Source: Vicinamibacteria bacterium (GTDB lineage Bacteria; Acidobacteriota; Vicinamibacteria; Vicinamibacterales; JAENWD01). Taken from it: a stretch of 64,000 nt of DNA. The position numbers were made by a program, and so were the translations under genes. The notes beneath the pieces are model-generated. The model worked only from the letters and a program-made list of their open reading frames with translations. It had not been told where the DNA came from and searched no databases. The first letter of the stretch is position 1. Each line of letters opens with the position of its first letter. Where the stretch lies: contig CAVUPP010000011.1 of NCBI GenBank assembly GCA_963743245.1, positions 514,473 through 578,472 of the forward strand, in the 5' to 3' direction. Positions 1,023 to 18,468 of this stretch are shown piece after piece.

Positions 1023-1633
1023 CGCGGAGACGAGATTCTCTCCGCGTCCGACAACTGCAGCCGGCCCGTCACGGCCTGACCTGACGCGAGAGCTCGGACG
1101 TTGGCTCATAACCGGCACGGGCCGAGGCTGTGTATCGGATGCGGTCGCGGGTCGCCGATCGAACGGGGCTGAGGAGCGGGGGCGCCTGGCACGACGGCCG
1201 CACGCTCGCCGCGGCCTTGGCACTCACGACCCGCCAGCACAACTCGCACCAACATGAACCTGGATCATCTGCGTGTTCGCTTGTTGCCTGCGAGGGACGA
1301 CTTACCCGAACGACGAGACGGCGTCGGCTTATTGGCGCGTTGACAAACCGACCAGCGCTCGCCGCGCGCGCCAACCAAGAATCCGGCGAATCAGCGCAGG
1401 GGCCAGAGGCACGAGGCCTGGTAACTGGCTCATCTGGCCGCATGACTGCGGGTTCAAGTCCCACGATTCGCCCTTGTCGGCCCCGCCGATAAACGGCCGG
1501 CGTGAATCCCGTAGCTCGTCGGAAGGCGGTTGTGAGATGACGGGATGCCGCTTCGCGACGGTACTATCGTGGAACGTCACGGACGGCGTTACGTTTCTGC
1601 TTCGTAACAGCGGAGAAAATAGACTGGGACGTC

Positions 1634-2083
1634 ATGGTGACCAGCGCGCTGCTCTCTGCGATCCACATGTTGACGCTCGCGCTGGGGCTCGGAGCCGTCG
1701 TCATGCGCGGGCGCGCACTCGCTCGTCCCCTCGATGAGGCCGGCTGGCAGCGCTTGCTCGCCGCCGACAACCTTTGGGGCATTGCGGCCGGCCTTTGGCT
1801 CGCCTCAGGTCTCGCGCGAGTGTTCTTTGGGGGGAAGGACCCGAGCTTCTATTGGGACAACGGCTTCTTCTGGATCAAGCTTGCGTTGTTCGGACTCGTG
1901 TTTGCGCTCGAGCTGATGCCGATGATGACGTTCATTCGCGTACGAACCGCACGCAGGCGGAGAACGGCGCTCCCACGATTCTCAGTTGAAGCGTACCGCT
2001 GGATCAATGCTGCAGAAATTGCGCTCGTCGTGGCGATCGTGTTCGCCGCAGCATTCATGGCCCGTGGCGCGTGGCTGTTCTGA
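1634..2083 (+). CDS. small integral membrane protein (DUF2214-like, tentative)
   Basis: 149-aa ORF with four hydrophobic spans (LLSAIHMLTLALGLGAVV, LWGIAAGLWLASGL, FWIKLALFGLVFALELMPMM, IALVVAIVFAAAFMA). The family call rests on size and topology only. Confidence 0.55.
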   Translation: MVTSALLSAIHMLTLALGLGAVVMRGRALARPLDEAGWQRLLAADNLWGIAAGLWLASGLARVFFGGKDPSFYWDNGFFWIKLALFGLVFALELMPMMTFIRVRTARRRRTALPRFSVEAYRWINAAEIALVVAIVFAAAFMARGAWLF

Positions 2084-2272
2084 AACTAGTCGCGGAATCC
2101 GCCTCTCGGACGCGGGATCGAGCAGTGAGTGGTGCGAACCGAGGCGCGGGAGAAGTCGCGTCAGCTCACCTGTCACGCGCGACCACTTACGGCGATCTAC
2201 TCGCGCTGGACCTGCAGCGGCGGGCTATGGGTGCAAGCTGTTCAACCGCACACCCACGGCGAATGTTGGCTT

Positions 2273-2602
2273 TTAGAATTCGCGTTGCAGGACGTAGTTG
2301 GGCGAGCCGTTGTAGAACCCGAACACTTCATTGTTCGCGTTCAGCACGTAGGCCACGACTGACACGGCGTGCGTCAGCGACACGGTGCCCTGCATGTCCA
2401 CCTGCAGGTGCGGATAGAGATAGATGTCGCCGCCTGGGCCTCTGGGTCCACCCGCCGTGAGCTCGTCGGGAGGAATCGGCGAGCCATCGCTGTTCAGGTT
2501 CTGGTACTGGTAGGCATAGCCTCCGAAGCCCGTGACGTGCCGCTGCGCGGCGACCACCCCAAGCTGCTCCGCCAGGCCGTCAACGACCCCCGCGCACTTC
2601 AC
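2273..2602 (-). CDS. hypothetical protein
   Basis: 109-aa ORF with GTG start, strong third-position GC and a beta-rich C-terminus (..EVFGFYNGSPNYVLQREF, TAA stop). No signal peptide or family recognised. Confidence 0.4.
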   Translation of the reverse strand: MKCAGVVDGLAEQLGVVAAQRHVTGFGGYAYQYQNLNSDGSPIPPDELTAGGPRGPGGDIYLYPHLQVDMQGTVSLTHAVSVVAYVLNANNEVFGFYNGSPNYVLQREF

Positions 2603-2624
2603 GGCCCAGGATACGTTCGAGATC

Positions 2625-3233
2625 TCAGCGCTCGGGTCCGGCCGTACCGCTGCGCTGCTTCCGTGACAGGGCTAGCGGGAGTGACACTCGGACGCCGGCA
2701 TACATCCCCAACGCTGGCGCCTCCTCGTTCCCTGGGCTGAGTAAAAGCAGCCTGCCTTCGGGTCCCACACGCCATCCATTGCTCGCCGGGAACAACACGC
2801 CGCCACCCACGGACACGCCAGGCATCATCGTGCGATCCGCGCGCACCTCGTCTTCGAACCGCGTCGTTCCGGTGTGATGGGCCATCACGAGACCCCCGAG
2901 GACGTAGCTCGCCGCCGCCTCGCTCGTCCACGAGTACTTCACCGCGGCGGCCAGCAGCGTCGTGTGGCCGTCTGCCTGGAACACGCCCTCGCCGCGATCG
3001 TGCGCCAACCAATCGACGCCGCATTCGAGCGACAGGCCCTTCGTGAAGCGCCGTTCGACGTGGCCAGAGAGGAGAAGTCCGCGACCGAGTGAGCCCTCGT
3101 CGTCCCAGGTCTGTCCAAAGCCGGCCGTGGCACCGGCGGTCCACAGTGGTGGTGTGGTCTGCGTCTGTGCTGCAGCTGTCGTGGTCTGAACCATTGCGAG
3201 CACGCTCAGAAAGACGAAGATCCTGCGGCGCAT
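2625..3233 (-). CDS. small outer-membrane beta-barrel protein
   Basis: 202 aa. Sec signal MRRRIFVFLSVLAMVQTTTAAAQ. Alternating amphipathic strands rich in Gly and aromatics (..AAAVKYSWT.., ..GVSVGGGVLF.., ..GMYAGVRVSL). Confidence 0.65.
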   Translation of the reverse strand: MRRRIFVFLSVLAMVQTTTAAAQTQTTPPLWTAGATAGFGQTWDDEGSLGRGLLLSGHVERRFTKGLSLECGVDWLAHDRGEGVFQADGHTTLLAAAVKYSWTSEAAASYVLGGLVMAHHTGTTRFEDEVRADRTMMPGVSVGGGVLFPASNGWRVGPEGRLLLLSPGNEEAPALGMYAGVRVSLPLALSRKQRSGTAGPER

Positions 3234-3314
3234 AAGGCCTCCCAGGGGGTACTGCGCAAACGACGCTCGAATTGGCTCATGCGGCTGGGGTAAGCTGCGG
3301 GCGGACCGACGCTG

Positions 3315-4577
3315 ATGACCCGCTGCACATCGTCACGACGCACGTTTCTGAAGACCTCCACCCGATTGTTGGGTGTGTCGCCCCTGGCCACGTTCATGAC
3401 CCGCATACCCTCGCCCGACTCCACAGGGCCGCTCGTCGCCTACGTCGGCACGTTCAGCTCACCACTGCGCGACACGCTACCCACACAGGTCGATCTGCCC
3501 CCGGGAAACGGCCGCGGCATCCATATCTTTCGCGTCGATCGTTCGACCGGCGCCATGACGCCGTCAGGCGTCGTCGAGATGGGCACGAGCCCGGGCTGTC
3601 TTGCCGTCAATAAAGTGGGCTCACGGCTCTATTCCGCGAACGAGACCGATCGTGTTGGTGACGACAAGCAGGGCACCGTCAGTGCGTTTGCGATCAGCCG
3701 CGCGGATGGGAAGCCGGAATTGCTGAATACCGTGCGGTCGGGCGGTACCGGACCGACGTATGTCAGCATCCATCCGGGCGGACGCCACCTGCTCGTGGCG
3801 AACTACTTCGGCGGGTCGGTGGCCGTGCTTCCGATACTCCCGGACGGCCGTCTGGGCGATCCCTCCGACGTGAAGGTCGATGCCGGCGCGATTGGTCCGA
3901 AGAAGGCGGCGCATGCACCCGAGGGCAGCTTCGCCATCAGCGGACACGATCGAACGCATGCGCACATGATCCAGGCGGATCCGTCGGGCCGCTTCGTGCT
4001 TCACGTGGATCTCGGTCTCGACCTGATCTTCGTCTGGAAGTTCGATGCGGATCGTGGCGTCCTGACAGCCAACGATCCTCCATCGGTGGCGTTACCTCCT
4101 GGCGATGGACCGCGCCATTTCCATTTCCATCCGAACGGGCGCTGGTGCTACTCGATTCAGGAAGAGGGCTCGACCGTCGTGTTGTTCGACTATGACGGCA
4201 CGGCGGGACGGTTGACCGCGCGACAGACGATCTCCACGCTGCCGCGAGCGTTTGCCGGCAGCAACTTCTGCTCAGAGATCCTGGTGTCGGCTGACGGGCG
4301 CTTCGTGTACGCCGGCAACCGGCTGCACGACAGCATTGCTCTCTTCGCGGTGGGACAGGATGGCGCCCTCACGTACGTGAGCGAGGAATGGACGCGCGGG
4401 AACTATCCACGCAGCTTCGCCTTCGATCCGAGCGCGTCGTTCCTCTACTGCTGCAATCAGCGCGCGGACGCCGTGACGGTCTTCCGTGTGGATCGCTCGA
4501 CCGGTGCGCTGGCGTTCACCGGTCACTACGCGGCTGTCGGGAATCCTTCGATCGTCGTCTTTGTCGATCTCGCCTGA
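3315..4577 (+). CDS. lactonase-family 7-bladed beta-propeller (6-phosphogluconolactonase-like), Tat-exported
   Basis: 420 aa. Twin-arginine motif SRRTFLK. Repeated blade motifs (..RLYSANE.., ..HLLVANYFGGSVAV.., ..GPRHFHFHPNGRW.., ..RFVYAGNRLHDSIALF..). Confidence 0.85.
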   Translation: MTRCTSSRRTFLKTSTRLLGVSPLATFMTRIPSPDSTGPLVAYVGTFSSPLRDTLPTQVDLPPGNGRGIHIFRVDRSTGAMTPSGVVEMGTSPGCLAVNKVGSRLYSANETDRVGDDKQGTVSAFAISRADGKPELLNTVRSGGTGPTYVSIHPGGRHLLVANYFGGSVAVLPILPDGRLGDPSDVKVDAGAIGPKKAAHAPEGSFAISGHDRTHAHMIQADPSGRFVLHVDLGLDLIFVWKFDADRGVLTANDPPSVALPPGDGPRHFHFHPNGRWCYSIQEEGSTVVLFDYDGTAGRLTARQTISTLPRAFAGSNFCSEILVSADGRFVYAGNRLHDSIALFAVGQDGALTYVSEEWTRGNYPRSFAFDPSASFLYCCNQRADAVTVFRVDRSTGALAFTGHYAAVGNPSIVVFVDLA

Positions 4578-4892
4578 CCGCGCCTGGTCCGGCTGCAGTC
4601 GTGTCGAGGTGGAGCTTTCGGCGAACCTTGTGCTCGAGCTAGGCCTGTGCGTTGGCACTCAAGCACCAGATCAATGGAAAGTTGGTTCCGCATCTGGGTA
4701 ATGCGCGTGCCCGACCGCTCCGCATCCGCGAAATCCCCGCCGTTCTCGACATTCGCAGGGGGTGGGCATCGGCAAATAACCTCAGAATTTACAAAAACGT
4801 GACGCCACGGTGAATGTCCGGGTCTTTGAGTTGCATGGGGTTGGGCGATGGCTGCGCCACGTCAATGGCCACTCCGCTCGAGGACCTGACAC

Positions 4893-5936
4893 ATGAAACG
4901 GCCTGTCTTCATCGTTGGCTGCCCGCGCTCCGGAACGACGCTGTTGTATTCGATGCTCGTCTCCGCTGGAGGGTTTGCGTTCTATCGCAAGGAGACCCAT
5001 TTCTACGAAGTCGCGCCGCGGTTCCCGGAGCTGTCGTCGGCCCGTGCGCGCGAGCGGTTTCTGCAGGAGTTTCTCGGCGGCTACCTCGGACGCGTTCCAG
5101 GCCTCGCCGTTGAACCGTTGATCCGTGGTGCGCTTGCGGAGTCCCGAGCGACGGGCGAATTCCTCCCGCGTCTCATGGCTCGTATCACCGAGACGCAGCA
5201 AATGGAACGGTGGCTCGAAGGCACGCCGGCCCACGTCCTCTACATGAACGCGATCAAAGCGTCGGTGCCCGATGCGCTGTTCGTGCACGTGATCAGAGAC
5301 GGCCGCGACTGTGCGTTGTCGACCGCCAAGCATCAATGGGTCTCCCGGATCGGCCTTGACCGCCACCGCGGCACAGGCGTTGCTGCGCTCTATTGGGAAT
5401 CGATGGTGCGGGCAGGGCGCGCGTACGGCCGCAGGAACCCCAGGGACTATCATGAAGTCCGGTTCGAGGACCTGGTGAGCGACCCGCAGCGCGCGCTCGA
5501 AGACGTGGGCCGATTCATCGATCACACGCTCGACGTCGAACGGATCGCGCAGCATCCCGTTCACGCGCTGAAGCAGCCGAACACGTCGTTTCGCGAGGAA
5601 CGTGCGCAGGGATCCTTCAATCCCGTCGGGCGATGGAAGTCGGCGGAGGCTGCCAACGAGGTCAGACTGTGTGAACGGCTCGTCGGACCGTACCTCGAGG
5701 CGGTGGGATATCAGCGGGCGTTTCCCGGGGAGCACGGCGGCCTGACGGGCGTACGGATGCGACTGACGTACATGACCTATTTCAAGGCGAAGCAATTCGT
5801 GAAGGCCCACACGCCGCTCGGCCGGGCGCTGACGAGCAGCCGTCCGTGGGCCGAGCAGCCGCGCGCAGGCGAAGCGCCCGTGGGCCCGATTGCCAGCGCC
5901 AACGTGGTGGAACAGTCCGCCGCCGCGGCCCGATGA
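4893..5936 (+). CDS. PAPS-dependent sulfotransferase family protein
   Basis: 347 aa. N-terminal 5'-phosphosulfate-binding loop FIVGCPRSGTTLL and later ..VHVIRDGRDCALS.., typical of Sulfotransfer_3-like enzymes. Confidence 0.85.
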   Translation: MKRPVFIVGCPRSGTTLLYSMLVSAGGFAFYRKETHFYEVAPRFPELSSARARERFLQEFLGGYLGRVPGLAVEPLIRGALAESRATGEFLPRLMARITETQQMERWLEGTPAHVLYMNAIKASVPDALFVHVIRDGRDCALSTAKHQWVSRIGLDRHRGTGVAALYWESMVRAGRAYGRRNPRDYHEVRFEDLVSDPQRALEDVGRFIDHTLDVERIAQHPVHALKQPNTSFREERAQGSFNPVGRWKSAEAANEVRLCERLVGPYLEAVGYQRAFPGEHGGLTGVRMRLTYMTYFKAKQFVKAHTPLGRALTSSRPWAEQPRAGEAPVGPIASANVVEQSAAAAR

Positions 5937-5961
5937 GCGCCATACTACGGGACAGCCCACA

Positions 5962-6879
5962 ATGACCGAACTGCTGGCTCTGTCCGCCATCACGTTCGTC
6001 GCCGCGATCGTCAACGGAGCGCTCGGCTACGGGTTCTCCTCGTTGACGGTCCCGATGGCGCTGCTGTTCATGGCGAGCCGCGTCCTGAACCCCGCGCTCG
6101 TTCTGATCGAAGTCGTCCTCAACGCCTACGTCCTGTTCGTCAATCGAGACAGCCTGCCGCTGGTGTGGCGGCGCATGTTGCCGCTGGTGGTCGGACTTGC
6201 GCCGGGCGTGCTGATCGGGACGCAGCTCGTGGCCCGCGTCAATCCCTCGTGGATGAAGCTCGCGACGTTTGCGTGTCTGCTGCCATTGATCCTCGTCCAA
6301 GCGGCCGGCTACCGGCGGCCGATCGCGTGGAATCGATCGTTCGGGCTCTCGTTCGGCGCCGGATTGGGCGTCCTCTATTCGGTCACGACAATTTCAGGAC
6401 CGCCCCTGGCGGTGTTGCTCAGCAACCAGGGATACACCAAGCGCGAGTTCCGTGCGGCACTCGGTTTCGTCCGCGTCGCGGAGTCACTCATGACGGCGGC
6501 GGCGTACGTGTATGTCGGGCTGTTCACCTCCACCACGCTGACGCTCTCACTTCAAATCCTGCCAAGCCTGGCGATCGGTGTGCCACTTGGCGCGCTCCTC
6601 ATCCGACACATCCGCACGGAAACCTTCCGGCGCGTGTGTATGAGTTTCGACGCGTGGATCGTGGCCTTCGGCTTGGCGTCACTGCTGCGAGCCTTGCAGC
6701 TCACGGACGTGGGACCTGCTGCGGCCTTGTTCCTCACCGTGGTCGCCCTGGATCTCTGGCTGCTGTACCGCTTCTTCCGTGCCGCACGCGGATTCGAGCC
6801 GGCGGTGGACGGCAGCGATGGCCTGGACAGGCTCACGCCGACGGCAACTTCTCGTCGAGGTCGCTCGCCAGCGCTGTGA
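5962..6879 (+). CDS. TauE/SafE (DUF81) family anion exporter
   Basis: In-frame ATG 24 codons into ORF 5890..6879, 25 nt after the sulfotransferase stop. MTELLALSAITFVAAIVNGALGYGFSSL.., about 8 TM spans, ..SFGAGLGVLYSVTTISGPPL.. Confidence 0.85.
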   Translation: MTELLALSAITFVAAIVNGALGYGFSSLTVPMALLFMASRVLNPALVLIEVVLNAYVLFVNRDSLPLVWRRMLPLVVGLAPGVLIGTQLVARVNPSWMKLATFACLLPLILVQAAGYRRPIAWNRSFGLSFGAGLGVLYSVTTISGPPLAVLLSNQGYTKREFRAALGFVRVAESLMTAAAYVYVGLFTSTTLTLSLQILPSLAIGVPLGALLIRHIRTETFRRVCMSFDAWIVAFGLASLLRALQLTDVGPAAALFLTVVALDLWLLYRFFRAARGFEPAVDGSDGLDRLTPTATSRRGRSPAL

Positions 6880-7767: not shown

Positions 7768-10700
7768 TCAGTCAAACGCCAGGACGGACGGCAGCGGGCC
7801 CGCGCCGAGTCTCAAGAGCACGTACCCGATCCCCGACAGGCCGTCGAAGAATCCAGGATTGATCACCTGCGGCACGTCAGTCGGATGAACACGGAACTCC
7901 GGCGCGTGTCGAAGCGCCTCGAGCGCCTGTTCACCTGCGGCGGCGTCGAGGTCCGGACGCCCGAGCAGGCTCGACGCACGCCGCAGGATGTCGAAGCGCC
8001 CGAAGCCTCCGCAGCAGACGTGATCGACGCTCTCTGGCTGTGGCCGTGCAGTCGTCTCCAACGCAGCGTTCAGTTCGTCCAGAACGGCGGGCATCTCGGC
8101 CGCGAGCGCAAGCCGCGCGAGCGCAATGCCAGGCGCACCGTGGCACCAGCTGGTCATGAACGCGGGCGAATCCGATTCGCGGCGATAGTCGATCCAGTTC
8201 CCGACGGATGGCACGTACGCAGCGCGCTCGAACTCGACCGCCTTTCGCGCGGCATCGATCAGATGGGCGCCGCCAGTCACCGCGTGCAGGCGAGCCAGCG
8301 CGTACGCGATTCCTGACGCGCCGTGCGAGAAGCCCGCGAGGGGGCGCGACGCGAATGTGCACGGCCAGCCGCCGGTATGCGGACCATCCAGGAGCTGATG
8401 GCTGCAGAGATGGCGCGCGCACGCAGATGCGTGCTCGAGAATCGACGTCAATGGCCGGGCCCGGTGAAGGGCGAGCACGCCGAGAATGGCGCCCGCGGAT
8501 CCGCCGATGACGTCGAACCCGCCATCCGCATCGATGGTGTCCGCAGCCACGGATCCGGCCAGCGCTTCGGCGTCGTCCAGCAGCGACGGCTCCTCCCGCC
8601 ACTCTGCGACTCGACTGAGAGCGTAGAGGATGCCACCGACACCTTCGGCGATCCCGAGCCCGGCACGGCGGACGAATTGCCGCGTGGCGTCTCGGTCGCG
8701 CAGCGTCTCACGAAGCGGCTGGAGTGCTCGGTCCATCGTCTCGCGATACCGGCCGTGCCCCGTCACCCGATCGCAGGCGGCCAGGAACAGCGCCACACCA
8801 GTCCGTCCGCCATAGAGACCGTCCGTCACGGGCTGCAACTGATAGCGGCCGATCTGAGGCAGATGCGTGAAGCCTTTCCAGCTCAGACTGCCGTCCGGAT
8901 TGTCGATAGCCTTGGACGCAATCCTGTCCGCTATCGCGAGCGCCGCTTCCGTGAATACCAGGCACGAGTGTGCGGACGCGGCCTGCATGGCAGCGACGTT
9001 CGCGAAAGCACCCCGATCACCACTCGGACCCACAATCTGTGAGGTTTCGAAATGGGACTCACCACGCGCGCGCCAGGCGTGCACGCTTGCTTCGATGAGC
9101 CGCACCTGCAGCTCGAGGCCTGCCTCGCTCATCGATTCCAACTGCGCGGCGACCTGGTCGTATCCGCTTCGCTCGAAGAAGCGTGGCACGACGACCTCGC
9201 CGTCGCAGCAGAGACTCGTGCCGGCTGCGATGGCGTCGAACCGCGGAAAATCGCCGCGTTCGAGCACGTCGCGCTCCGCCCGGATGACCGGCCAGCTATC
9301 TGCGTCGCTGTCGTTCAGGTAGCCGCGCCAGACGCGCTCGAGCTCGATGCTGCGATCGCAGCCGTTCCGCAGATACTCGGGCGTCAGAACGTGGCGCAGC
9401 ATGTGGCCGTAGTGTTCGGTACGGCGGAACACATACCGAATGGACTGACGGCTGAAAGCGGCGAGTGGACCGCCTTCTGCCAGCAGCGCCGGCCGATGTC
9501 GGACGATGAGCCGGTAGATTTCGCGAAAGCCGTCAACCAGTTCGCCAAGGTAGTCCGCGGGCGAAAGGGCCGTCCCGTCGAGCATGGCAGCGTTCGCCTG
9601 CGAGGGAAGGGCGACAGGCTCGTAATACACGTCCACATCGTCGGTATTGACGTCCTTCCAGCGCGCCACGGGCGCAGGTGTCTCCTGGGGACCGATGCCT
9701 CCGAGCGCGCTGATGTCGCACGGTGTCGTTGCCTGGGGCGCTTCCCAGTGAGGCAGCATGCCGACTCGAACCACCGAGTCCCAGAACGCCTGGTCAGAGA
9801 CGGGACGATCGCGCTCCGGGACCATCACTGTCTCCAGATCGATGAGGACAGGATGCTCTCCCGCGGCGACGACGTTCTCGTAATGACAGTCGGTGCCCAA
9901 CACCACGTGCAGGAGCGCGAGCAGCATGCCTGCACGCCTGTAGAATCGAGACGCCTTCGCCGCATCCGCACAAGGCCGCGGGTCGATCCATCGCACCCAA
10001 CCGTGATCGCCGCAGGTGAGTGTGGCGGCAGCATCGAGGGCCACTGACAGTCCCTGCTGATTGCACCAGTCAACGAGCTCTGCGAAGGCCCGATCGATCT
10101 CGACCGGACGTGGCTTGTAGGCCAGCACGAGCCCGTTTGCGAATGTCACCCTCATCACCGACCGGCCGCGCTGGTGCGGATCCGAGAGCCCCACGCGTAG
10201 ACCGACGACGCCGCCAGGCGACGCGCCCGGCGTGAGATCGAAGGCCGTCGCGATGGCAGGTGCATCGTCTCGAAGGGCGGACTGGAACTCCACACAGTGC
10301 TCGACCCAACCCTCGACGAGCGTTGACGTGAGCCGGCCGAGCACGGGGTACGACTCGAAGAACGGCAGCAGATCCGCAGACAGCAGTTGCGTGATGAACG
10401 CGTCGTAGTGATGGTGGCGGCCCCGGCCCGTTGCACCTACGAGCGTGTTCAGCAAGCTGTGCCCAGCCGGCCGGAACGACGAGAACTCCGCCAGCAGACT
10501 GAGCGCGCAGGTTTGCGCGAGACGATCGAGCAGTCCGATTTCGAGCGAACGGTACGCCTCGTCGCTCAGGCATCCGCGCGGTAGCTCGTTCCACAGCGAC
10601 TGTGGACTTCCGAGCGCGCGATGCAGGCGCCGTCTGGCCCCGAAGACGATCGGATGCAGCGCATCCTCGAACGGGCGCGGACGTTCGAGGTTCCGGCAGA

Positions 10701-11028
10701 TGATGCCGGGAGGGTGTTGCCGATACTCAGCGGTCGAGTCCAACAGATCGACGAGCACATCCAGCCATGGCGGCGACGGCGCGGGAGCATCCCCGTGCGC
10801 CAAGACGCCGCGCACGCGTAACTCTGTCAACCCGTCGATCGTCAATCGTCGAAGGAACAGATCCTGGTCGGCGCCCGCCACGACGCGCTGCCAGCGTGCG
10901 ACACGCGCATCGCTCTCCTCGCTCGCCGCAGTGAGTGGTTCCGTTGTGTCTTGGTGGAGCGCGAGACGTTCCCAGAGGGAGAGCGATCGGTCGGCGATTC
11001 GCCGCACGCGAGCCGTTGCCGCGCTCAT
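7768..11028 (-). CDS. lanM: class II lanthipeptide synthetase LanM, ProcM-like (three-Cys zinc site)
   Basis: 1086 aa. The C-terminal LanC-like cyclase carries GFSHGASGIAYAL, SWCHGAPGIALARL and VDHVCCGGFGRFDIL (CCG instead of the usual CHG). The ~650-aa N-terminal region has the size of a LanM dehydratase domain. Its ATG overlaps the upstream ORF stop (ATGA). Confidence 0.95.
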   Translation of the reverse strand: MSAATARVRRIADRSLSLWERLALHQDTTEPLTAASEESDARVARWQRVVAGADQDLFLRRLTIDGLTELRVRGVLAHGDAPAPSPPWLDVLVDLLDSTAEYRQHPPGIICRNLERPRPFEDALHPIVFGARRRLHRALGSPQSLWNELPRGCLSDEAYRSLEIGLLDRLAQTCALSLLAEFSSFRPAGHSLLNTLVGATGRGRHHHYDAFITQLLSADLLPFFESYPVLGRLTSTLVEGWVEHCVEFQSALRDDAPAIATAFDLTPGASPGGVVGLRVGLSDPHQRGRSVMRVTFANGLVLAYKPRPVEIDRAFAELVDWCNQQGLSVALDAAATLTCGDHGWVRWIDPRPCADAAKASRFYRRAGMLLALLHVVLGTDCHYENVVAAGEHPVLIDLETVMVPERDRPVSDQAFWDSVVRVGMLPHWEAPQATTPCDISALGGIGPQETPAPVARWKDVNTDDVDVYYEPVALPSQANAAMLDGTALSPADYLGELVDGFREIYRLIVRHRPALLAEGGPLAAFSRQSIRYVFRRTEHYGHMLRHVLTPEYLRNGCDRSIELERVWRGYLNDSDADSWPVIRAERDVLERGDFPRFDAIAAGTSLCCDGEVVVPRFFERSGYDQVAAQLESMSEAGLELQVRLIEASVHAWRARGESHFETSQIVGPSGDRGAFANVAAMQAASAHSCLVFTEAALAIADRIASKAIDNPDGSLSWKGFTHLPQIGRYQLQPVTDGLYGGRTGVALFLAACDRVTGHGRYRETMDRALQPLRETLRDRDATRQFVRRAGLGIAEGVGGILYALSRVAEWREEPSLLDDAEALAGSVAADTIDADGGFDVIGGSAGAILGVLALHRARPLTSILEHASACARHLCSHQLLDGPHTGGWPCTFASRPLAGFSHGASGIAYALARLHAVTGGAHLIDAARKAVEFERAAYVPSVGNWIDYRRESDSPAFMTSWCHGAPGIALARLALAAEMPAVLDELNAALETTARPQPESVDHVCCGGFGRFDILRRASSLLGRPDLDAAAGEQALEALRHAPEFRVHPTDVPQVINPGFFDGLSGIGYVLLRLGAGPLPSVLAFD

Positions 11029-12080
11029 TGTTGGCCGGTGATCGGATCGTTCGAGAACCAGTTGTGCCCGAAGCCGAGGTAGACCTTGACCTCGGGACCA
11101 TGGTCCGGATGGTAGGCGAGCTTGATGTGATTGATGGTACGCCAGACCATACTCGTAGCTCTGCCGCGAAACAGCAGATCACCGAGCGCAAGGTTGCCGG
11201 CCCATGCGCCGCCGGCGCGGCTTTCAGGTGTGAAGCCCGGCCAGGTGAGCAGGGAGTGTGCCTTCTCACGGCTTGCGAGGCCGCGCTCGGCGAGCAGATC
11301 GAACAGCGCCCGCCAGCGCGGCAGATTGTCGGTTTCGCGCCGCACGTAGAACTCCACACCGACCTTGTCACGAACGCAGGTGTCGACGTCAAGGTCCAGC
11401 AGGACCTCTGAATCCGCGATTTCCGCAATCGCTTCGACCAGCGGCACCAGCGTGCCTGCGGGATCGTGCCAGCCGATCGCATCGAGGTACGGCGCCACCA
11501 ACGTCACCGGGAACCGATCGAGGACGAGCCGGGTGGCGCTTCCGGGCCGCCCTGGCATCAACCCCATGTGCGCAAAGCGCGCTCCCGGCGGCAGTGCCAG
11601 CGCGCACCGCTCCAGCACGCCGCAAGGCAGGCGTGCGCGATAGCCGTCGAGTTCACCAGCGTCCGCAATCGCGGCGATATCGCACGCGTCAAGAGGCTGG
11701 TCGGTGTGAAGCTCGAGAAACAGGATCGGCGTCGGCGCCGCAGGCGGCGGGTTATCGAGATCGAACTCGAGGAAGATCAATCTGACGCGCGAATGAAGCG
11801 GATTGGATGGGTCCGCGACGGCGTCGCAGACTCGCCGGACTGTGCGCCACGCCGGATGCACCAGAAGCGCCGGCGAAAATTCAGGATTCGAATAGGGTAG
11901 ACGGACGAAGAAATCGACGTTGAGCTCGTCGTCGTGCAGCCGCACTTCGAGGCCGGCCAGCGAGCACGGAGGCAGCTGTCGGGCTAGTGTCCGGATGCGA
12001 GTCAGCGCACCCGGCGTCGCGATCGCCGCAGGCAGGTGCGGTGCGACGAGGGCCACGTAGCCCTCCATGGAGATGTCCAT
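11025..12080 (-). CDS. uncharacterised 351-aa protein translationally coupled to LanM; candidate tailoring enzyme with a possible PT-barrel/ABBA-like fold
   Basis: Intact ORF with AGGTGA 7 nt before the ATG and an ATGA overlap with lanM. No rSAM CxxxCxxC, P-loop, GxSxG, SAM-MTase, LanB/C/D/P/I or TM motifs. There are ten strand-like segments in five pairs: GLEVRLH/NVDFFVRL, RVRLIFLEFDL/PILFLELH, RFAHMGLMP/TRLVLDRF, EVLLDLDV/KVGVEFYVRR, HIKLAY/EVKVYLGF. The pairs are separated by amphipathic helical stretches. Confidence 0.85.
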   Translation of the reverse strand: MDISMEGYVALVAPHLPAAIATPGALTRIRTLARQLPPCSLAGLEVRLHDDELNVDFFVRLPYSNPEFSPALLVHPAWRTVRRVCDAVADPSNPLHSRVRLIFLEFDLDNPPPAAPTPILFLELHTDQPLDACDIAAIADAGELDGYRARLPCGVLERCALALPPGARFAHMGLMPGRPGSATRLVLDRFPVTLVAPYLDAIGWHDPAGTLVPLVEAIAEIADSEVLLDLDVDTCVRDKVGVEFYVRRETDNLPRWRALFDLLAERGLASREKAHSLLTWPGFTPESRAGGAWAGNLALGDLLFRGRATSMVWRTINHIKLAYHPDHGPEVKVYLGFGHNWFSNDPITGQQ

Positions 12081-12107
12081 CGATTGTCACCTGCCCGGTG
12101 AGTGCTG

Positions 12108-12156: not shown

Positions 12157-12342
12157 TCAGCAGCAGCCAAACAGCGTCGTCCACGCGCCGGTGCAGCCGT
12201 CGCTGGTCGCCTGCTTCGGTCGGCCACCCGCCACCTGCGCGAGCTGTGCATCGCTCAGCTCTTCGATTAAGTTCTTCTTGTTCTGCATCAACACGACGTT
12301 CACGTCGTCGGCGCTGAAGTGGTAGTCGTCCACGACCCTCAC
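12157..12342 (-). CDS. lanA: lanthipeptide precursor A1 (5'-truncated Nif11-type leader, GG cleavage motif)
   Basis: 61 aa: MRVVDDYHFSADDVNVVLMQNKKNLIEELSDAQLAQVAGG | RPKQATSDGCTGAWTTLFGCC. The core has 3 Cys and 5 Ser/Thr. GTG start; the weak SD makes the exact start uncertain. Confidence 0.85.
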   Translation of the reverse strand: MRVVDDYHFSADDVNVVLMQNKKNLIEELSDAQLAQVAGGRPKQATSDGCTGAWTTLFGCC

Positions 12343-12379
12343 ACCTCGATCGCGGACGACAACCGTTTGCGCGTCGAGT

Positions 12380-12677
12380 TCAGCAGGCGCCGAAGAGCGT
12401 CGTCCATGCGCTACCGCAGCCGTCCTTGGTCGCTGGCGGACGGCCGCCCGCGACCTGGGCGAGCTGGGCCTCGCTCAGTTCGCCGAGCGGATTCCTCTTG
12501 TTCTGCATCAGGACCGACGTCCACATCGTCTGCGGTGAACTGGTAGCCGTTGTCCTTGCCCACGCGGATGACCGACTGCGTAAAGGCGTTCTGATCCGTG
12601 ATGTTCTTGAGCTGGTCCTGCAGCTTCGCGTCACCCATGACCTTCGCCAGAAACTGATTGAGATTGGCCTGACTCAT
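12380..12677 (-). CDS. lanA: lanthipeptide precursor A2 with a full Nif11 leader; frame-interrupted by one extra nucleotide as assembled
   Basis: Frame 1 (12677 -> ~12515) reads MSQANLNQFLAKVMGDAKLQDQLKNITDQNAFTQSVIRVGKDNGYQFTADDVDV. The homologous continuation VLMQNKRNPLGELSEAQLAQVAGG | RPPATKDGCGSAWTTLFGAC* is in the next frame and stops at 12380. The span is 298 nt, so removing one G gives 297 nt = 98 aa + stop. GGAGGA lies upstream of the ATG. Confidence 0.85.
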
Positions 12678-12736
12678 GTTTTTCTCGTCCTCCGAAGCTC
12701 TAGTGTCCGATCCCGGTCGTTCGTAACGCGTCCGTC

Positions 12737-13273
12737 CTACTGCGCACCCCAGGGCCGCCGCTGCATCTCCGAGAACCTGAGCCCGGCCATGGATACATTC
12801 GCCATGAGATGCGGCGCGAGTTCATCCACGTCTTCCACGTTTTCATCGAGTTGCAGGCGTGGCGTACCGAGGTGACTCGTCGTTGTCCGGAGCCGATCGG
12901 CAAGGAACACGGCCAGCGCTCGATAGAAGCGCGCGGCGAATCCCACGTCGTCTCGCAGCTTTGCGGAGAGCGTCGCCCGGGGAATCGCGCCGACTTTTGA
13001 CTCGACTTCGGCGCGCACGCTCGCCACCGGTGGCCGAGCATCCACGAACGAGATCTCGCCCACGACGTCGCCTGCCTTGAGGACCGCAATCCTCGGCGCA
13101 GCTGGCGTGTGGACAACGAGCGCCCCGTCCAGCACGAAGTAGAGCCACTCGGTGGCCTTGCCCTGTTCGATGAGCTGATCCCCGGGGGCAAGCGTCATCT
13201 TCCGGCCGCTCCGGATCATCCACTCGAGGTCCCGGTCGTCGAGGATGCCGAGGAAATACAGTGCTCGTCTCAC
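12737..13273 (-). CDS. cyclic-nucleotide-binding domain protein (bacteriocin-transport-associated type)
   Basis: ORF 12737..13678 trimmed to GTG 13273, with GAGGA 6 nt upstream, 14 nt after the ABC stop. 178 aa. cNMP-binding beta-roll ..GDQLIEQGKATEWLYFVLDGALVV..KAGDVVGEISFVDARPPVASVRA.. Confidence 0.85.
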   Translation of the reverse strand: MRRALYFLGILDDRDLEWMIRSGRKMTLAPGDQLIEQGKATEWLYFVLDGALVVHTPAAPRIAVLKAGDVVGEISFVDARPPVASVRAEVESKVGAIPRATLSAKLRDDVGFAARFYRALAVFLADRLRTTTSHLGTPRLQLDENVEDVDELAPHLMANVSMAGLRFSEMQRRPWGAQ

Positions 13274-13287
13274 GATGTGTCCTCGCG

Positions 13288-15390
13288 TCAGGCGGTCTGT
13301 CTGCGGGCCAGGTCCGCAAACGGTCCTTCCTGTCGCATCAAATCCTGATACGTGCCTTGCTGGACGATCACGCCTCGGTCGAGGACGTAGATGTAGTCTG
13401 CATGAACGATCGTGCTGAGCCTGTGGGCGATGACGACCCGCGTGGCCTTCAGGCTCTCGAGGCTGTGACTGACGAGTGCCTGTGTCTCGTTGTCGAGTGC
13501 GCTCGTCGCCTCGTCGAACAGCAGCAGCGACGGCTTTCTGACAATCGCACGGGCGATCAGGACACGCTGCCGCTGACCACCCGACAAGCCGCTGCCGCCT
13601 TCGCCGAGCAGTGTGTGCATGCCCATGGGCATGTTCTCGATGTCGCGTTCGAGGCCCGCCATTTTTGCCGCGGTCCACGCGTCGTCCAGCGTCAGATAGG
13701 CGCTCGCTCCCGCGATGTTCTTGTAGAGCGAGTCGGCGAGAAGCCGTCCGCTTTGCAGCACTACGCCGATTTGCCGGCGTACGGCTTTGATATCGAGCGC
13801 TGACTGACTCCGGCCGTCGTACTTGACCTCGCCGGAGTCGGGCGCCTCGAATCCCATCAGCAGCCGGAAGAGCGTGGATTTGCCGCTGCCAGAGGGTCCG
13901 ACGATGGCGACGAACCTGCCGGCCGGGATATGCATCGTGATATCGCGCAGCACGAGCGGCGCGCCGGGGGCGTAGCGGAAGTTGACGTTCAAGACGTCGA
14001 TCGCACCGGTCAGGACGCCGGGGTCGGGCCTGCCGACGTCAACTTCCGGCACCGCTGAAAGGATGGGCTGCGCCCGTTCATACAGCGGGACGAGTGCCAG
14101 CAATCTGACTACCGCCGATCCGAGACCGAGCGCAGCCATCTGGAACTGCGCAAACGCGACATTGAAGGCGACGAATCCCCCAGTTGAGAGCTGGCTCTCT
14201 CCATGCGCGTTCAGCAGCCGCACGGTTGCCCAATAGACGACGGCAGCGCTGAGCACGGGCGCCACCGACGTGAACACCGCGTACGCGATCGACACCCGCC
14301 GCGCCCGCGCCGCGATCTGCTTCTTCCTGCTGAAGGCTGACGCCCACGCGGTAAACGCGCGCTCCTCGGCGGCCGCCACGCGCAGCTTCGAGATCCCGTT
14401 CACGAATTGCAGGAGCATCCCCGAGAGACGGCCCCCGATCGCGATCGTTTCGCGCTCCAAGCCGACCTGCACGTATCCGGTGAAGACCGTCACCAGCACC
14501 ATCACGAGGGCGAAGCACGCCGCCAGGAAGGCCAGGATGCCGCTGTAATAAAAGAGCAGCCCGAACGTGAAGATCGAAAAGACGCCTGCGAGCACGGTGG
14601 AGATGGCCGCTCCGGTCAGGACTTGACGCATCGCCGTAATGCTCAGACTTCTCGTCGCAAGGTCACCCGCCGCATAACGCCGGAAAAACGGTACCGGCAG
14701 TGCCAGCAGGCGATCCCACACCGCGGGCTGCAGCGAGGCGTCGATCTTGCCCTCCAGCCGTCGAACCGCAAAGCTCTGAGCCACCTGGAACATCGACGCG
14801 CCCACTGCCGCCACGGCCATCAATACAGTCAAGACGCGTACCTGGCCAGTGTCGGCACGTGGGATGACCGCATCGAAGAGAATGCCGGTCAAGACTGGCA
14901 GCGCCGTGGCCAGCGCACCGGCTGCGAGCCCCGTCATGGCGACGGTCGCGAGATCGCGCCCCAATCCCCTGAGACCGAACCGGAGCAGGTCGAGCCCTGT
15001 GACCGCCCGGGGCGGAAGGGGCCGATAGAAGCACCACGCAAACGGCTGGAGTGATGCCGCAACCGATTCAGTGAGCGGCGTGTGGCTGCCGGTCAGCGGA
15101 TCGTACAGGCGGTAGCGGCGGGGCGATACGGGCAGCAGCGCAACCGGGTTGCCATTGCTCTCGCGGCGGCCAATCATCGGGCCGACGTCTTCACTCCACC
15201 ACCCCTCCCTGAGTGCCACGACCCGTGTCCTGACGCCCGACGCCGACGCGATCGCCACGAGCGGATCGGCGCCGCCAGTCCTTGCCGGATCGGTGTTCGC
15301 CCGGAACTCGATCCCCGCCCGGCGTCCGACCTCGCGGCATGCCAGCAGCCACGGATCGCCGACGGCCGTCTCGGGCGATGTCGTGGACAT
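13288..15390 (-). CDS. ABC exporter (permease + ATPase), NHLM-bacteriocin type without a catalytic peptidase Cys
   Basis: ORF 13288..15936 trimmed to ATG 15390 (MSTTSPETAVGDPW..), which overlaps the upstream stop by 1 nt. 700 aa with a ~150-aa N-terminal extension and 6 TM. Walker A GPSGSGKST, signature LSGGQRQR, Walker B LLLFDEATSALD. Confidence 0.9.
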   Translation of the reverse strand: MSTTSPETAVGDPWLLACREVGRRAGIEFRANTDPARTGGADPLVAIASASGVRTRVVALREGWWSEDVGPMIGRRESNGNPVALLPVSPRRYRLYDPLTGSHTPLTESVAASLQPFAWCFYRPLPPRAVTGLDLLRFGLRGLGRDLATVAMTGLAAGALATALPVLTGILFDAVIPRADTGQVRVLTVLMAVAAVGASMFQVAQSFAVRRLEGKIDASLQPAVWDRLLALPVPFFRRYAAGDLATRSLSITAMRQVLTGAAISTVLAGVFSIFTFGLLFYYSGILAFLAACFALVMVLVTVFTGYVQVGLERETIAIGGRLSGMLLQFVNGISKLRVAAAEERAFTAWASAFSRKKQIAARARRVSIAYAVFTSVAPVLSAAVVYWATVRLLNAHGESQLSTGGFVAFNVAFAQFQMAALGLGSAVVRLLALVPLYERAQPILSAVPEVDVGRPDPGVLTGAIDVLNVNFRYAPGAPLVLRDITMHIPAGRFVAIVGPSGSGKSTLFRLLMGFEAPDSGEVKYDGRSQSALDIKAVRRQIGVVLQSGRLLADSLYKNIAGASAYLTLDDAWTAAKMAGLERDIENMPMGMHTLLGEGGSGLSGGQRQRVLIARAIVRKPSLLLFDEATSALDNETQALVSHSLESLKATRVVIAHRLSTIVHADYIYVLDRGVIVQQGTYQDLMRQEGPFADLARRQTA

Positions 15391-17540
15391 CAGCTCGTCC
15401 TGATGAGACGGGCATACGCCCCGTCTTTCGCGACCAGCGCGTCGTGCGTCCCGCGCTCCACGACGACGCCTCGCTCGAGCACGATGATCTCGTCGCAATC
15501 TCTGATCGTGCTGAGCCGATGAGCGACTACGAGACAGGTGCACCGGCGCCGGCGGATGGCGTCGATCACGCGTTGCTCGGTGAGCGAATCGAGCGCACTC
15601 GTCGCCTCGTCGAGCACGAGGATGCGGGGATTCCGGGTGAGGGCGCGCGCGATTTCCAGCCGCTGGCGTTGTCCGCCGCTGAAGTTCCGGCCCTGCTCCT
15701 CGATCTGATGGCCGTAGCCTGAGGGGTACTCCAGGATGTCGTCGTGGATGCAGGCGTCCCTGGCGGCCTGGATGACATCGGCCTCGTCGATGCGCTCGTC
15801 CCACAGCGTGAGATTGTCGCGAATCGTGCCTTCGAAGAGCGTGATGTCTTGATCGACCAGCGCGATGGATCGTGACACGCGGCTGCGCGGCACCTGGCTG
15901 CGCGGTTGGCCGTCGAACAGCACGTCGCCCTCCCACACCTTGTACAAGCCAGTCACAAGCCGCGCGAGCGTCGACTTGCCGCTGCCCGACTCTCCAACGA
16001 GCGCCACCTGCTGTCCTGCCTTCACCGCAAGGTTGAAGTCAGTGATTAGCGGCGGATCCAGGCGGCTGTACCCGAACGTCACACCGCGTACGTCCACGGC
16101 GCCTTGCAGCGGTTCGATGGGTTCTGCCGCATCCGCCGAAGGTCTGGCCAACGGATCCCGTGGATACCGCAGGACATCATCGAGACGCGTGAGGTCGCCG
16201 CCGGCCTCCTGCAGCGCTCCTCCCAGCAACACCAGCCGATTGGCCGGGTCGATGAAGCTCTGCATCAAGCTCTGAAACGCAATCAACATCCCCATCGTCA
16301 GGACGCCATCGATGATCCGGACGCTGCCGATGCCGACAATGACCGCGGCGTTGAGGGATGTGAGGAGCGGCGGCACGGCCGACAGATACTCGGCGACGGC
16401 TCCCAGGTGACCTTCCGAGGTCACCACTTTGGCGTGATAGCCGGCCCATGTGCTGAAGAACTCCGATTCAGCGCCGGAGGCTTTGAGCGTCTCGAGCGTC
16501 TGCAGGCCAGCCATCGACGCGCCGACCAACTTGCCGCGCTCTTGCAGCAGGCGCAGGCTCGTGTCGCGCCGCCGGCGGGCCAGCAGCCGCAGAACAACGA
16601 GATTCGTCAGGGCAACGGCGACGCCGATCGCTGTGAGCATCGGGTCGTACCGGAACATCAGGGCGGCGAAGAATCCCACCATGGCGATGTTGACCAGGCT
16701 GGTCGCGAGATCGCCTGACAGCAGGACGGCGACACTGTCGTTGATCTCGACGCGTGACACGAGATCGCCACCGAAGCGCTGCGCGAAGAACTCGACGGGC
16801 AGCTGCAACAGGTGCCAGAAGAACCGTCGCGATCCGTCAACCGCGAGTTTGAGCTCCAGTCGCAGCAATCCCCGCTGTTGCAGGTAGGTCAGTGCTCCTC
16901 GCGCGATGGCGGTCACGACCATGGCCGCGACGAGCGGCGTCAACCAGGCTGGCGCACCGGGAACCAGGATGTGGTCGATGAAGATGCGTGAGAACGCCGG
17001 CACCAGCAAGCCCGGCAGGACCAGCGCCAGCGTCGCGAGCGCGAGAAACGCGAGTGCTGCGCGGCTGCCCGGCAGCCGGCTGGCGAGTGATCGCAGCACC
17101 GAGGGCTTGGCGCCGCCGGGCGCGAATGCAGGTCCACGTTCGAAGCCCAGGACCACGCCCGTGAACGATTCGTCGAACTCGCGATCCGGCACTGCTCGCG
17201 GACCAAACGCCGGGTCGTTGATATAGGCGAGGCCGGCGCCGAAGCCTTCGACCACGACGAAGTGGTTGAAGTTCCAGAACGCAATCATTGGGGCGGGGAA
17301 GTCCCGCAGCTGGTCGGCGTCCTTCGAATATCCCTTGCAGAGCAGGCCGAACGAGCGTGCAGCCTTGACGATGTTCAGGGCCTTGCTGCCATCGCGCGAG
17401 ACGCCGCAGGCCACGCGAAGCTCTTCGAGCGGCACGAACCGTCCGAAGTAGCCGAGCACCATTCCCAAGGCGGCGGCCCCACATTCGGCCGCCTCCATCT
17501 GTATGACGGTGGGCGTGCGCGCGCGCTGACGCTTCGGCAC
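15390..17540 (-). CDS. lanT: bifunctional C39-peptidase / ABC exporter (LanT/AMS type; NHLM peptidase/ATP-binding protein)
   Basis: 716 aa. The N-terminal C39 domain has the Cys in VIQMEAAECGAAALGMVL and the His in FWNFNHFVVVEG. 6 TM. Walker A GESGSGKST, FSGGQRQR, ILVLDEATSALD. Confidence 0.95.
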   Translation of the reverse strand: MPKRQRARTPTVIQMEAAECGAAALGMVLGYFGRFVPLEELRVACGVSRDGSKALNIVKAARSFGLLCKGYSKDADQLRDFPAPMIAFWNFNHFVVVEGFGAGLAYINDPAFGPRAVPDREFDESFTGVVLGFERGPAFAPGGAKPSVLRSLASRLPGSRAALAFLALATLALVLPGLLVPAFSRIFIDHILVPGAPAWLTPLVAAMVVTAIARGALTYLQQRGLLRLELKLAVDGSRRFFWHLLQLPVEFFAQRFGGDLVSRVEINDSVAVLLSGDLATSLVNIAMVGFFAALMFRYDPMLTAIGVAVALTNLVVLRLLARRRRDTSLRLLQERGKLVGASMAGLQTLETLKASGAESEFFSTWAGYHAKVVTSEGHLGAVAEYLSAVPPLLTSLNAAVIVGIGSVRIIDGVLTMGMLIAFQSLMQSFIDPANRLVLLGGALQEAGGDLTRLDDVLRYPRDPLARPSADAAEPIEPLQGAVDVRGVTFGYSRLDPPLITDFNLAVKAGQQVALVGESGSGKSTLARLVTGLYKVWEGDVLFDGQPRSQVPRSRVSRSIALVDQDITLFEGTIRDNLTLWDERIDEADVIQAARDACIHDDILEYPSGYGHQIEEQGRNFSGGQRQRLEIARALTRNPRILVLDEATSALDSLTEQRVIDAIRRRRCTCLVVAHRLSTIRDCDEIIVLERGVVVERGTHDALVAKDGAYARLIRTS

Positions 17541-17543
17541 GAG

Positions 17544-18359
17544 CTACCTCGATGGCGGGGCGTCAAGACCGGGAACGACGAGGCTCAACGGACGCTGCTC
17601 GCGGATCACGATCTCGGCATGGCAGGGCACTGTCTGCGCCGGCAGCGTCGCGTCGCGGCTCACGAGGGCGTACACCGCGATGCGCGGTTCTGCCCCGCGT
17701 TGAGCGCCGTCTACGATTCCAGGTGCTGTTGCAACGAACTCGACCCGTGCTGCCAGCACGTGCGCGTCCTCACCGGCGCCGACGCGAATCGTTACGGACA
17801 TCCCGCGTCGCACCTGTTGCGCCCGTGCGGGTTCGAGATACAGCACGGCCTCCGGCCGATCGTGCTCGGGGCGCAGCGTGACGATCGGGCTTCCGGCTGG
17901 AACGGTCGCCCCCACCGACACCGCCACGCGATCCACGCGTCCGGTGTAGGGACTGACCACTCCTCCCAACGAGTCCAACTGCTGCCCGAGGAGCGCGAGC
18001 TCTTTCGGGTTCGTTCGCGCCGCTTGCAACCGATCGAGGAGCTGAGGCGTCGCGACGATGGCAATGACCTGCCCGGCGGCGACGCGGTCGCCGATCCCGG
18101 CGCGAAGGTCCGAGACCTGGCCTGCGAGGGGCGAGGGAATGGACCGGACGCCGCCTGACGCGACCAGGATGCCGGATGCCTCGACCGTGGTGGTGATACG
18201 CCCCCAGTAACCCCACCCGAGAGCGGCACCAAGACAGAGCAGCAGGGCAGTCAACGCGAGCCACGTGCGAGGCGCCGTGACCCGAAGGAGCTGATCGAGC
18301 TGCTCGGGCGACGACATGCGGTCGAGGGCCGCCTTCCGGAAAATCCGGTTTGCATCCAT
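17544..18359 (-). CDS. HlyD-family secretion adaptor (NHLM bacteriocin secretion protein type)
   Basis: ORF 17544..18398; the likely start is ATG 18359 (MDANRIFRKAALDRMSSPEQLDQLLRV..). Single TM LALTALLLCLGAALGW, then a lipoyl/beta-barrel region. A 3-nt gap separates it from the next gene. Confidence 0.85.
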   Translation of the reverse strand: MDANRIFRKAALDRMSSPEQLDQLLRVTAPRTWLALTALLLCLGAALGWGYWGRITTTVEASGILVASGGVRSIPSPLAGQVSDLRAGIGDRVAAGQVIAIVATPQLLDRLQAARTNPKELALLGQQLDSLGGVVSPYTGRVDRVAVSVGATVPAGSPIVTLRPEHDRPEAVLYLEPARAQQVRRGMSVTIRVGAGEDAHVLAARVEFVATAPGIVDGAQRGAEPRIAVYALVSRDATLPAQTVPCHAEIVIREQRPLSLVVPGLDAPPSR

Positions 18360-18468
18360 CGTTCGTCCGGGCGCGGCAGCGGGAAGAGGCCGTCCCACCG
18401 CGAATCGCGGAGGAGCTTATCCGGCGCCCTGCGCCCACGCAAGGCATCCGCGAGTTGATTGATGTACC

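Follow-up and report, generated by a model that had tools for sequence, protein, structure and literature searches.

Prenylated class II lanthipeptides have been described for two enzyme systems. NctPC (Hubrich et al., Chem 2024, 10:3224) joins an ABBA prenyltransferase (PT) domain to an MstE-like class II terpene cyclase, and it geranylgeranylates a Trp before cyclising the isoprenoid (review PMC13290415). MppC, an ABBA PT from Moorena producens, geranylates the indole C5 of Trp82 in MppM-cyclised MppE, a precursor that carries a Nif11 leader (Wakeel et al., JACS 2025, PMC12715784). It strictly requires the structured nucleus of the leader and an L(X)4L motif, with Phe340 of the enzyme docking into the leader; among 258 MppC relatives, 76 have LanM as a neighbour and 87 have Nif11, and MppC-type and PagF-type enzymes are unconnected in sequence-similarity networks (PMC12715784). 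Here we analyzed a 351-aa open reading frame (ORF) with an ATG start (11025..12080, minus strand) in a 64-kb stretch of Vicinamibacteria bacterium contig CAVUPP010000011.1; "the window" refers to this whole stretch. A first-pass annotation had put the ORF forward as a candidate new lanthipeptide-tailoring enzyme with a PT-barrel-like pattern, unaware of any described prenylated LanM-type lanthipeptide. The claim of novelty is superseded by the 2024 and 2025 publications: the ORF is a distant, uncharacterised further member of an enzyme kind first described in those years, not a new kind. Based on the ORF itself, an AlphaFold2 (AF2) model, Foldseek searches and MppC homology, we are confident, short of certainty, that its product is a soluble prenyltransferase with a PT-barrel (ABBA) fold, belonging to the MppC/NctP family of leader-dependent lanthipeptide prenyltransferases.

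The AF2 model, built on 25 homologues, had a mean pLDDT of 85.5 and a pTM of 0.87. Its secondary structure consists of five helix-helix-strand-strand repeats, with two helices before each strand pair. The ten long strands (residues 41-47, 55-61, 99-107, 119-124, 168-174, 183-191, 225-232, 236-245, 308-324 and 328-343) account for every one of the ten strand segments picked out earlier by eye (43-49, 54-61, 98-108, 118-125, 168-176, 183-190, 225-232, 239-248, 318-323 and 330-337). When the model was compared to the PDB with Foldseek, all 24 matches with E<1e-3 were PT-barrel/ABBA prenyltransferases, including bacterial 5-/6-DMATS, IptA, DMATS1, CdpNPT, AtaPT, CloQ, FunA and CymD. These matches had a probability of 1.0, TM-scores of 0.44-0.59 and identities of 10-15%, aligned over 360-450 columns. 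TleC, PirF and LimF followed as weaker matches, while the first hits outside the PT-barrel fold had probabilities <0.1. The fold that the first-pass annotation had guessed from sequence pattern is therefore the one recovered by modeling, and we conclude that the predicted structure of the ORF product is a PT-barrel.

Sequence searches against family models were silent. Neither Pfam nor NCBIfam matched the ORF even at E<=10, and no transmembrane segment was found in it (maximum Kyte-Doolittle 19-mer of 1.33), consistent with the earlier observation that it lacks both membrane segments and the motifs of known lanthipeptide accessory proteins. Pfam likewise gave no match for any of 92 diverse family members. 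The best hit to the ORF in a PDB sequence search had an E of 1.6, which is not significant, and a PDB search with the 92-sequence family profile was empty as well, giving no match to PagF, PirF or LimF either.

Homology was instead established with MppC, whose sequence we traced indirectly, from MppE homologues to a Moorena producens locus (L006) and from there to the 90% cluster of the gene after the precursor. That gene (L006:10745-11872, 375 aa) matched the family profile with an E of 4e-63 over positions 10-350, and its BLASTP alignment with the window ORF spans 359 aa at 28% identity (E 1e-37). Its 90% cluster includes WP_158516919.1 from Moorena producens PAL, with W336 and F340 present at those positions. 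Because precisely these two residues were mutated in the MppC study, we take the L006 gene and WP_158516919.1 (also AOW98181.1) to be MppC. The cluster representative, P0164, was also matched in an unbiased search of 1.84 billion sequences (E 3.8e-55). Judged by its sequence, the window ORF is a bona fide full-length homologue of MppC.

To describe conservation, we used an alignment of 92 diverse family members, MppC included, numbered according to the window ORF. E45, L48 and Y334 are invariant, while D56, W78, E105, D107, R178, R184, D231, E243, K273, R314, H318, K320 and K332 are kept in >=93% of the sequences and W341 in 92%. Most of the conserved charged and Tyr residues, namely E45, D56, E105, D107, R184, D231, E243, R314, H318, K320, K332 and Y334, fall at alternating strand positions, with i/i+2 pairs at E105/D107, H318/K320 and K332/Y334. 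This alternation is what would be expected of a polar lumen that binds Mg2+-diphosphate and supplies a catalytic acid/base, with the inward orientation of the side chains inferred from strand periodicity in the model. MppC shares all of the family residues conserved at 93-100%, except that R314 is Lys. The leader-docking Phe340 of MppC aligns with Leu303, which is also hydrophobic; this column is occupied by Leu in 36 sequences and by Phe in 28, together 64 of the 92, and Leu303 lies beside a short helix within the conserved motif W293-x3-L297-x2-G300-D301-x-L303-F304-R305-G306. MppC W336 corresponds to Leu299.

The resemblance to MppC extends from the enzyme, with its full-length homology and same predicted PT-barrel, to the surrounding cluster. 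Both belong to class II (LanM) systems whose Nif11-type precursors carry an L(X)4L motif, a GG site and a core that contains Trp. The two differ in host phylum, Acidobacteriota (Vicinamibacterales) versus Cyanobacteriota, and in gene arrangement: the ORF lies directly 5' of lanM and is coupled to it, whereas Moorena mppC lies 3' of the precursor, ~3.8 kb from mppM. The cores are also dissimilar, since that of the window cluster is longer and of a two-ring type (DGC..AWTTLFG.C) compared to the heptapeptide ACWRWSG of the MppC system. The Moorena locus contains several further genes. It encodes (12231-15430, 15685-17019) an amine-oxidase and SQHop-cyclase-like 716-aa protein and a Trp halogenase, together with a 354-aa protein without a Pfam match, two FlmR_OhkR_N / 2OG-Fe(II) oxygenase-like proteins, and a 289-aa protein without a Pfam match that overlaps the 5' end of mppM and is not a PT homologue by hmmsearch.

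NctPC, like the ORF product, is an ABBA-fold peptide PT with low similarity to the cyanobactin PTs, and it modifies Trp of a ribosomal peptide after macrocyclisation. Its PT plus cyclase architecture is matched by many 700-750-aa fusions in the family of the ORF, and from this architecture and the published descriptions we infer that NctPC belongs to the same sequence family. The ORF differs in being a stand-alone P domain. Because it has no cyclase domain, a linear rather than polycyclic isoprenoid would be expected.

Among enzymes of known structure, bacterial and fungal DMATS-type and CloQ/NphB-type enzymes (6zs0, 6zrx, 7w8v, 8db1 and 2xly) were the best matches, with E values of 4e-6 to 1e-4. 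Theirs is likewise a five-fold alpha-alpha-beta-beta barrel, and indole is the substrate of many, but they have no detectable sequence similarity to the ORF (Trp_DMAT and PTase_Orf2 were unmatched at E<=10) and use free amino acids or small molecules rather than leader-bearing peptides. We rejected membership of the DMATS family (Pfam Trp_DMAT, PF11991), which matched neither the ORF nor the 92 members; the likeness is at the level of the fold. The cyanobactin F-family (PagF, LynF, PirF, LimF), to which the first-pass annotation had compared the ORF, also consists of PT-barrel peptide prenyltransferases of pathways for peptides made by the ribosome and modified after translation (RiPPs). That comparison is not supported, as the fold matches are weak (LimF, E 4.6e-3 and probability 0.38; PirF, E 8e-3) and the two groups are unconnected in the published networks. 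F-family enzymes are leader-independent and act after N-C macrocyclisation. Membership of this family (PagF/LynF/TruF) was rejected as well, given no sequence match to the family models and a different context, in which the cyanobactin proteases PatA and PatG and a PatE-type precursor are replaced by LanM, Nif11 precursors and a C39-ABC transporter.

The ORF has the features of a genuine gene. Its codon-position GC (0.72/0.48/0.76) resembles that of real genes nearby, it has 27 homologues of the same length, and its own Shine-Dalgarno sequence, AGGTGA, lies 6 nt upstream of the ATG (12087..12092, minus strand), as first annotated. Met5 is the second in-frame ATG and the start site of several homologues. 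At the other end, the TGA stop (11027..11025) shares bases with the lanM ATG (11028..11026), giving an ATGA overlap at 11025..11028 on the minus strand (junction CAATGAGCG) that points to translational coupling. LanM (7768..11028, minus strand) is a 1086-aa class II lanthionine synthetase with PF13575 (DUF4135, E 9e-120) and PF05147 (LANC_like, E 1e-48) domains. The reported intactness of the ORF, the overlap with lanM and its position as the sole gene between two Nif11-type precursors and lanM all held on inspection.

The same arrangement recurs at homologous loci, as the first-pass annotation had suggested checking. On contigs of sufficient length, one or more Nif11 precursors are followed by the PT and then LanM, in L001, L002-4, L005, L011 and L014. 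The PT proteins of these loci are about 47-53% (L001, L002-4, L005) and 39% (L011) identical to that of the window, while L014 encodes the identical protein. The PT/LanM junction is ATGA or TGATG in L001, L002, L005, L011 and L014, and a cyclic-nucleotide (cNMP)-binding protein and transporters are usually found near the PT-LanM pair. What is new here is an Acidobacteriota (Vicinamibacterales) subfamily in which the PT gene was always coupled to lanM at the loci examined, and whose cores share the motif DGC-xx-[A/G]WTT[L/I]FG-x-C; the product is cryptic. By homology, leader-dependent lanthipeptide prenylation would thereby extend from cyanobacteria to soil Acidobacteriota. The core motif and the PT-LanM operon junction could serve as hooks for genome mining, and lipidated macrocyclic peptides such as the cryptic product of this cluster might be are of pharmaceutical interest.

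Both precursor genes of the window lie upstream of the PT on the minus strand. Precursor A (12380..12677) is of the Nif11 type, with a leader ending in ...LSEAQLAQVAGG and the core RPPATKDGCGSAWTTLFGAC; it has a Nif11 N-terminal half, LSEAQL, GG and AWTT. The window had been described as full of frame breaks, of which we could confirm at least one, a +1 frameshift at ~12513-12515 in precursor A. It consists of one extra G (GAC GTC G GTC CTG, within 12505-12525, minus strand) and parts the Nif11 leader (MSQANLNQFLAK...DDVDV) from the remainder (VLMQNKRNPLGELSEAQLAQVAGG and the core). Precursor B (12157..12342) is a short-leader copy of 61 aa from a GTG, with a leader ending in ...LSDAQLAQVAGG and the core RPKQATSDGCTGAWTTLFGCC; it has LSDAQL, GG and AWTT but is missing the structured nucleus in the N-terminal half of a Nif11 leader. 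Compared to the JGI contig L014, which is 99.6% identical, the window lacks ~256 nt (L014:159-414) at 12343-12380, a loss that takes away the intergenic region together with ~43 codons from the start of precursor B. In L014, precursor B is a full 99-aa Nif11 precursor ending in ...AWTTLFGWC, compared to ...AWTTLFGCC in the window. On a Logan contig with an identical PT, precursor A is intact (98 aa) and precursor B is short. The frameshift in A and the loss in B may be assembly errors or genuine variants; in the latter case, the cluster might be impaired in this copy.

The leaders of the precursors end alike, in ...L-S-[ED]-A-Q-L-A-Q-V-A-G-G, which combines L(X)4L with a double-glycine site. 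The subfamily core motif, [ST]-x-D-G-C-x-x-[AG]-W-T-T-[LI]-F-G-x-C, suggests two thioether rings, one on either side of Trp. The first-pass annotation had noted a conserved AWTTLFG in both cores, its invariant Trp being the only one. In the window this is correct, and the Trp is the only aromatic nucleophile besides Phe; across the subfamily it does not hold, as the cores of L002, L005 and L014 have two Trp and L011 departs further. Beside the 39%-identical PT, the L011 precursor (L011:6566-6919) carries a longer core (MTKSVDGGTPLPQYTTSGSCTETSTKSSCGSTSLFGWCS) that lacks the AWTT Trp and has its sole Trp in a C-terminal FGWCS. Nonetheless, every examined core adjoining a homologue has at least one Trp.

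Together, MppC homology and the conserved LanM/Nif11 linkage strongly support a role as a tailoring peptide prenyltransferase, probably acting on Trp, and so uphold the direction, if not the novelty, of the initial proposal. From these comparisons, the ORF product most likely attaches an isoprenoid chain to a ring-containing peptide; fusions of family members to squalene-hopene-cyclase-like domains or to S-adenosylmethionine (SAM) methyltransferases are a further pointer to isoprenoid chemistry. In the pathway we envisage, a Nif11-type precursor would be dehydrated and cyclised by LanM, which would be co-translated with the PT from the same mRNA. Docking of the PT on the leader would involve L(X)4L (LSEAQL or LSDAQL) together with the structured nucleus of Nif11, and its barrel would hold an isoprenoid diphosphate by means of Mg2+ and the conserved basic, acidic and Tyr residues. 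Transfer of the prenyl cation would follow, the most likely target in the core being the indole of the lone Trp in ...AWTTLFG..., and the C39-ABC transporter would then cleave behind GG and export the lipidated lanthipeptide. The catalytic activity, step order, leader dependence, Trp acceptor and Mg2+ dependence proposed here are all drawn by analogy from MppC and NctPC. More tentatively, the PT and LanM of Vicinamibacterales may form an obligate two-enzyme unit acting on one leader, with a donor or regiochemistry new to lanthipeptides, for example at a Trp between two thioether rings; if so, Acidobacteriota would gain their first lipidated lanthipeptide.

Several points weigh against assigning the ORF to leader-dependent lanthipeptide prenylation. 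Identity to MppC is just 28%, so that the donor, acceptor and regiochemistry of MppC are not transferable to the ORF. The cluster genes scanned included no isoprenoid diphosphate synthase gene that could point to the donor. As L011 lacks the AWTT Trp and has its only Trp in FGWCS, the acceptor position, or even the type of acceptor residue, may differ within the subfamily. Finally, the cluster copy as sequenced may make no prenylated product, given the frameshift in precursor A and the absence from precursor B of the structured half of the leader on which MppC depends.

Some of these same observations bear on whether the enzyme might be an active PT of this family with chemistry unlike that of MppC and NctPC, using another acceptor (Ser/Thr/Tyr O, the N-terminus, Cys S or a dehydro-amino acid), reverse prenylation, or a long or methylated donor. 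PT-barrel enzymes are plastic in acceptor and donor, and the fold matches of the ORF span indole, His and aromatic-acid prenyltransferases. This plasticity, the low identity to MppC, the shift in Trp position between L011 and the window, and the methyltransferase and cyclase fusions, which point to diversified isoprenoid chemistry, would all fit such a divergence. We nevertheless consider it unlikely, because both characterised relatives modify Trp, at least one Trp occurs in every examined core beside a homologue, and the window core offers no aromatic nucleophile other than Trp besides Phe.

A PT-barrel that has lost transferase activity and serves LanM as a leader-binding or scaffolding partner, or as a chaperone of the long Nif11 leader, appears very improbable. 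It would account for the strict translational coupling to LanM, which extends to a fusion of the two (P0112), for the binding of the whole leader in the MppC family, and for the missing donor-supplying gene among those scanned. However, the charged and Tyr residues on the strands, which are conserved across the 92 members, active MppC among them, would be expected to disappear from a degenerate scaffold; the window protein retains all of them, which disfavours a non-catalytic copy. The LanM enzymes of Nif11 systems, such as MppM and ProcM, also work without a partner of this kind. An unrelated function, as an immunity protein, regulator or protease adjacent to LanM by chance, is effectively refuted. 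We found no support for it, the database names in the family all being 'hypothetical protein', while the fold matches are exclusively prenyltransferases, MppC is a homologue, transmembrane segments are absent and no Pfam or NCBIfam family claims the protein. The preferred assignment remains a tailoring PT of the MppC/NctP family.

This family is large. A word-indexed search found 27 close relatives with 46-99% identity, all ~350 aa in length and unnamed or 'hypothetical', with Vicinamibacterales and Acidobacteriota as their only taxon labels; a search for related loci with a narrow alignment returned 3 genome loci. A profile search of 1.84 billion cluster representatives recovered 3750 clusters (at 50% identity) with E<=1e-3, 970 of them with E<=1e-30, and every stand-alone member seen was named 'hypothetical protein' in the database. 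Standard annotation leaves the family unnamed because it relies on family models, of which none exists here; 3750 clusters without a Pfam or NCBIfam model gain a functional assignment.

Fusions are found in several forms. The PT domain is joined to a squalene-hopene-cyclase-like domain in proteins of ~710-750 aa, including P0092, P0102 and P0147, which matched the family profile at E ~1e-61 and have an SQHop_cyclase_C-like C-terminal domain, and to a SAM methyltransferase in proteins of ~635 aa. In P0112, a single 1427-aa protein (L013, Logan SRR23274245, gene 79-4362), an N-terminal PT (residues 12-351) is followed by a complete LanM, with DUF4135 at 575-943 and LANC_like at 1062-1423. PT proteins with a C-terminal CMAS/UbiE-like SAM methyltransferase are encoded at L010:431-2341 and by P0036 from Pannus brasiliensis CCIBt3594 (WP_332865065.1), both ~635 aa; the L010 gene neighbours a TPS-domain secretion protein, not LanM. 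P0102, a 718-aa PT plus cyclase-like fusion (L012, Logan SRR33167568, gene 4030-6186), lies in a lasso-peptide-type cluster with genes for PqqD, a transglutaminase-like protease, an Asn synthase-like cyclase, an HPr-kinase-like protein, two P450s and a Nif11-domain peptide. Such a setting suggests that some family members prenylate and cyclise on RiPPs other than lanthipeptides.

Upstream of the PT, the minus strand of the window carries the two precursors, a cNMP-binding protein, an ABC transporter, a C39-peptidase ABC transporter and an HlyD protein, in that order. The cNMP-binding domain protein (12737..13678, PF00027) accompanies the cluster as a conserved neighbour, being present in L002/L003, L005 and L011 too; its ORF as listed probably extends too far at the 5' end. 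The ABC transporter (13288..15936, PF00664 and PF00005) is listed with a 5' part that overlaps the C39-ABC gene by ~550 nt and is probably untranslated; its N-terminus is implausibly Arg-rich, and the true start is probably near MSTTSPETAV. The peptidase C39-ABC transporter (15390..17540; PF03412, PF00664 and PF00005) would provide double-glycine leader cleavage and export, and it is followed by an HlyD-family membrane fusion protein (17544..18398, PF13437). At 284 aa, compared to 418-423 aa in L002/L003, the HlyD ORF may contain a further frame break. On the other side of the cluster, just past lanM on the plus strand, lie a sulfotransferase gene (4893..5936, PF13469/PF00685) and, beside it, a gene for a TauE/SafE sulfite-exporter-like membrane protein (5890..6879), which might conceivably serve to sulfate the peptide. 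A DUF1003 gene separates lanM from these two genes, and the same genes also flank the cluster in L014.

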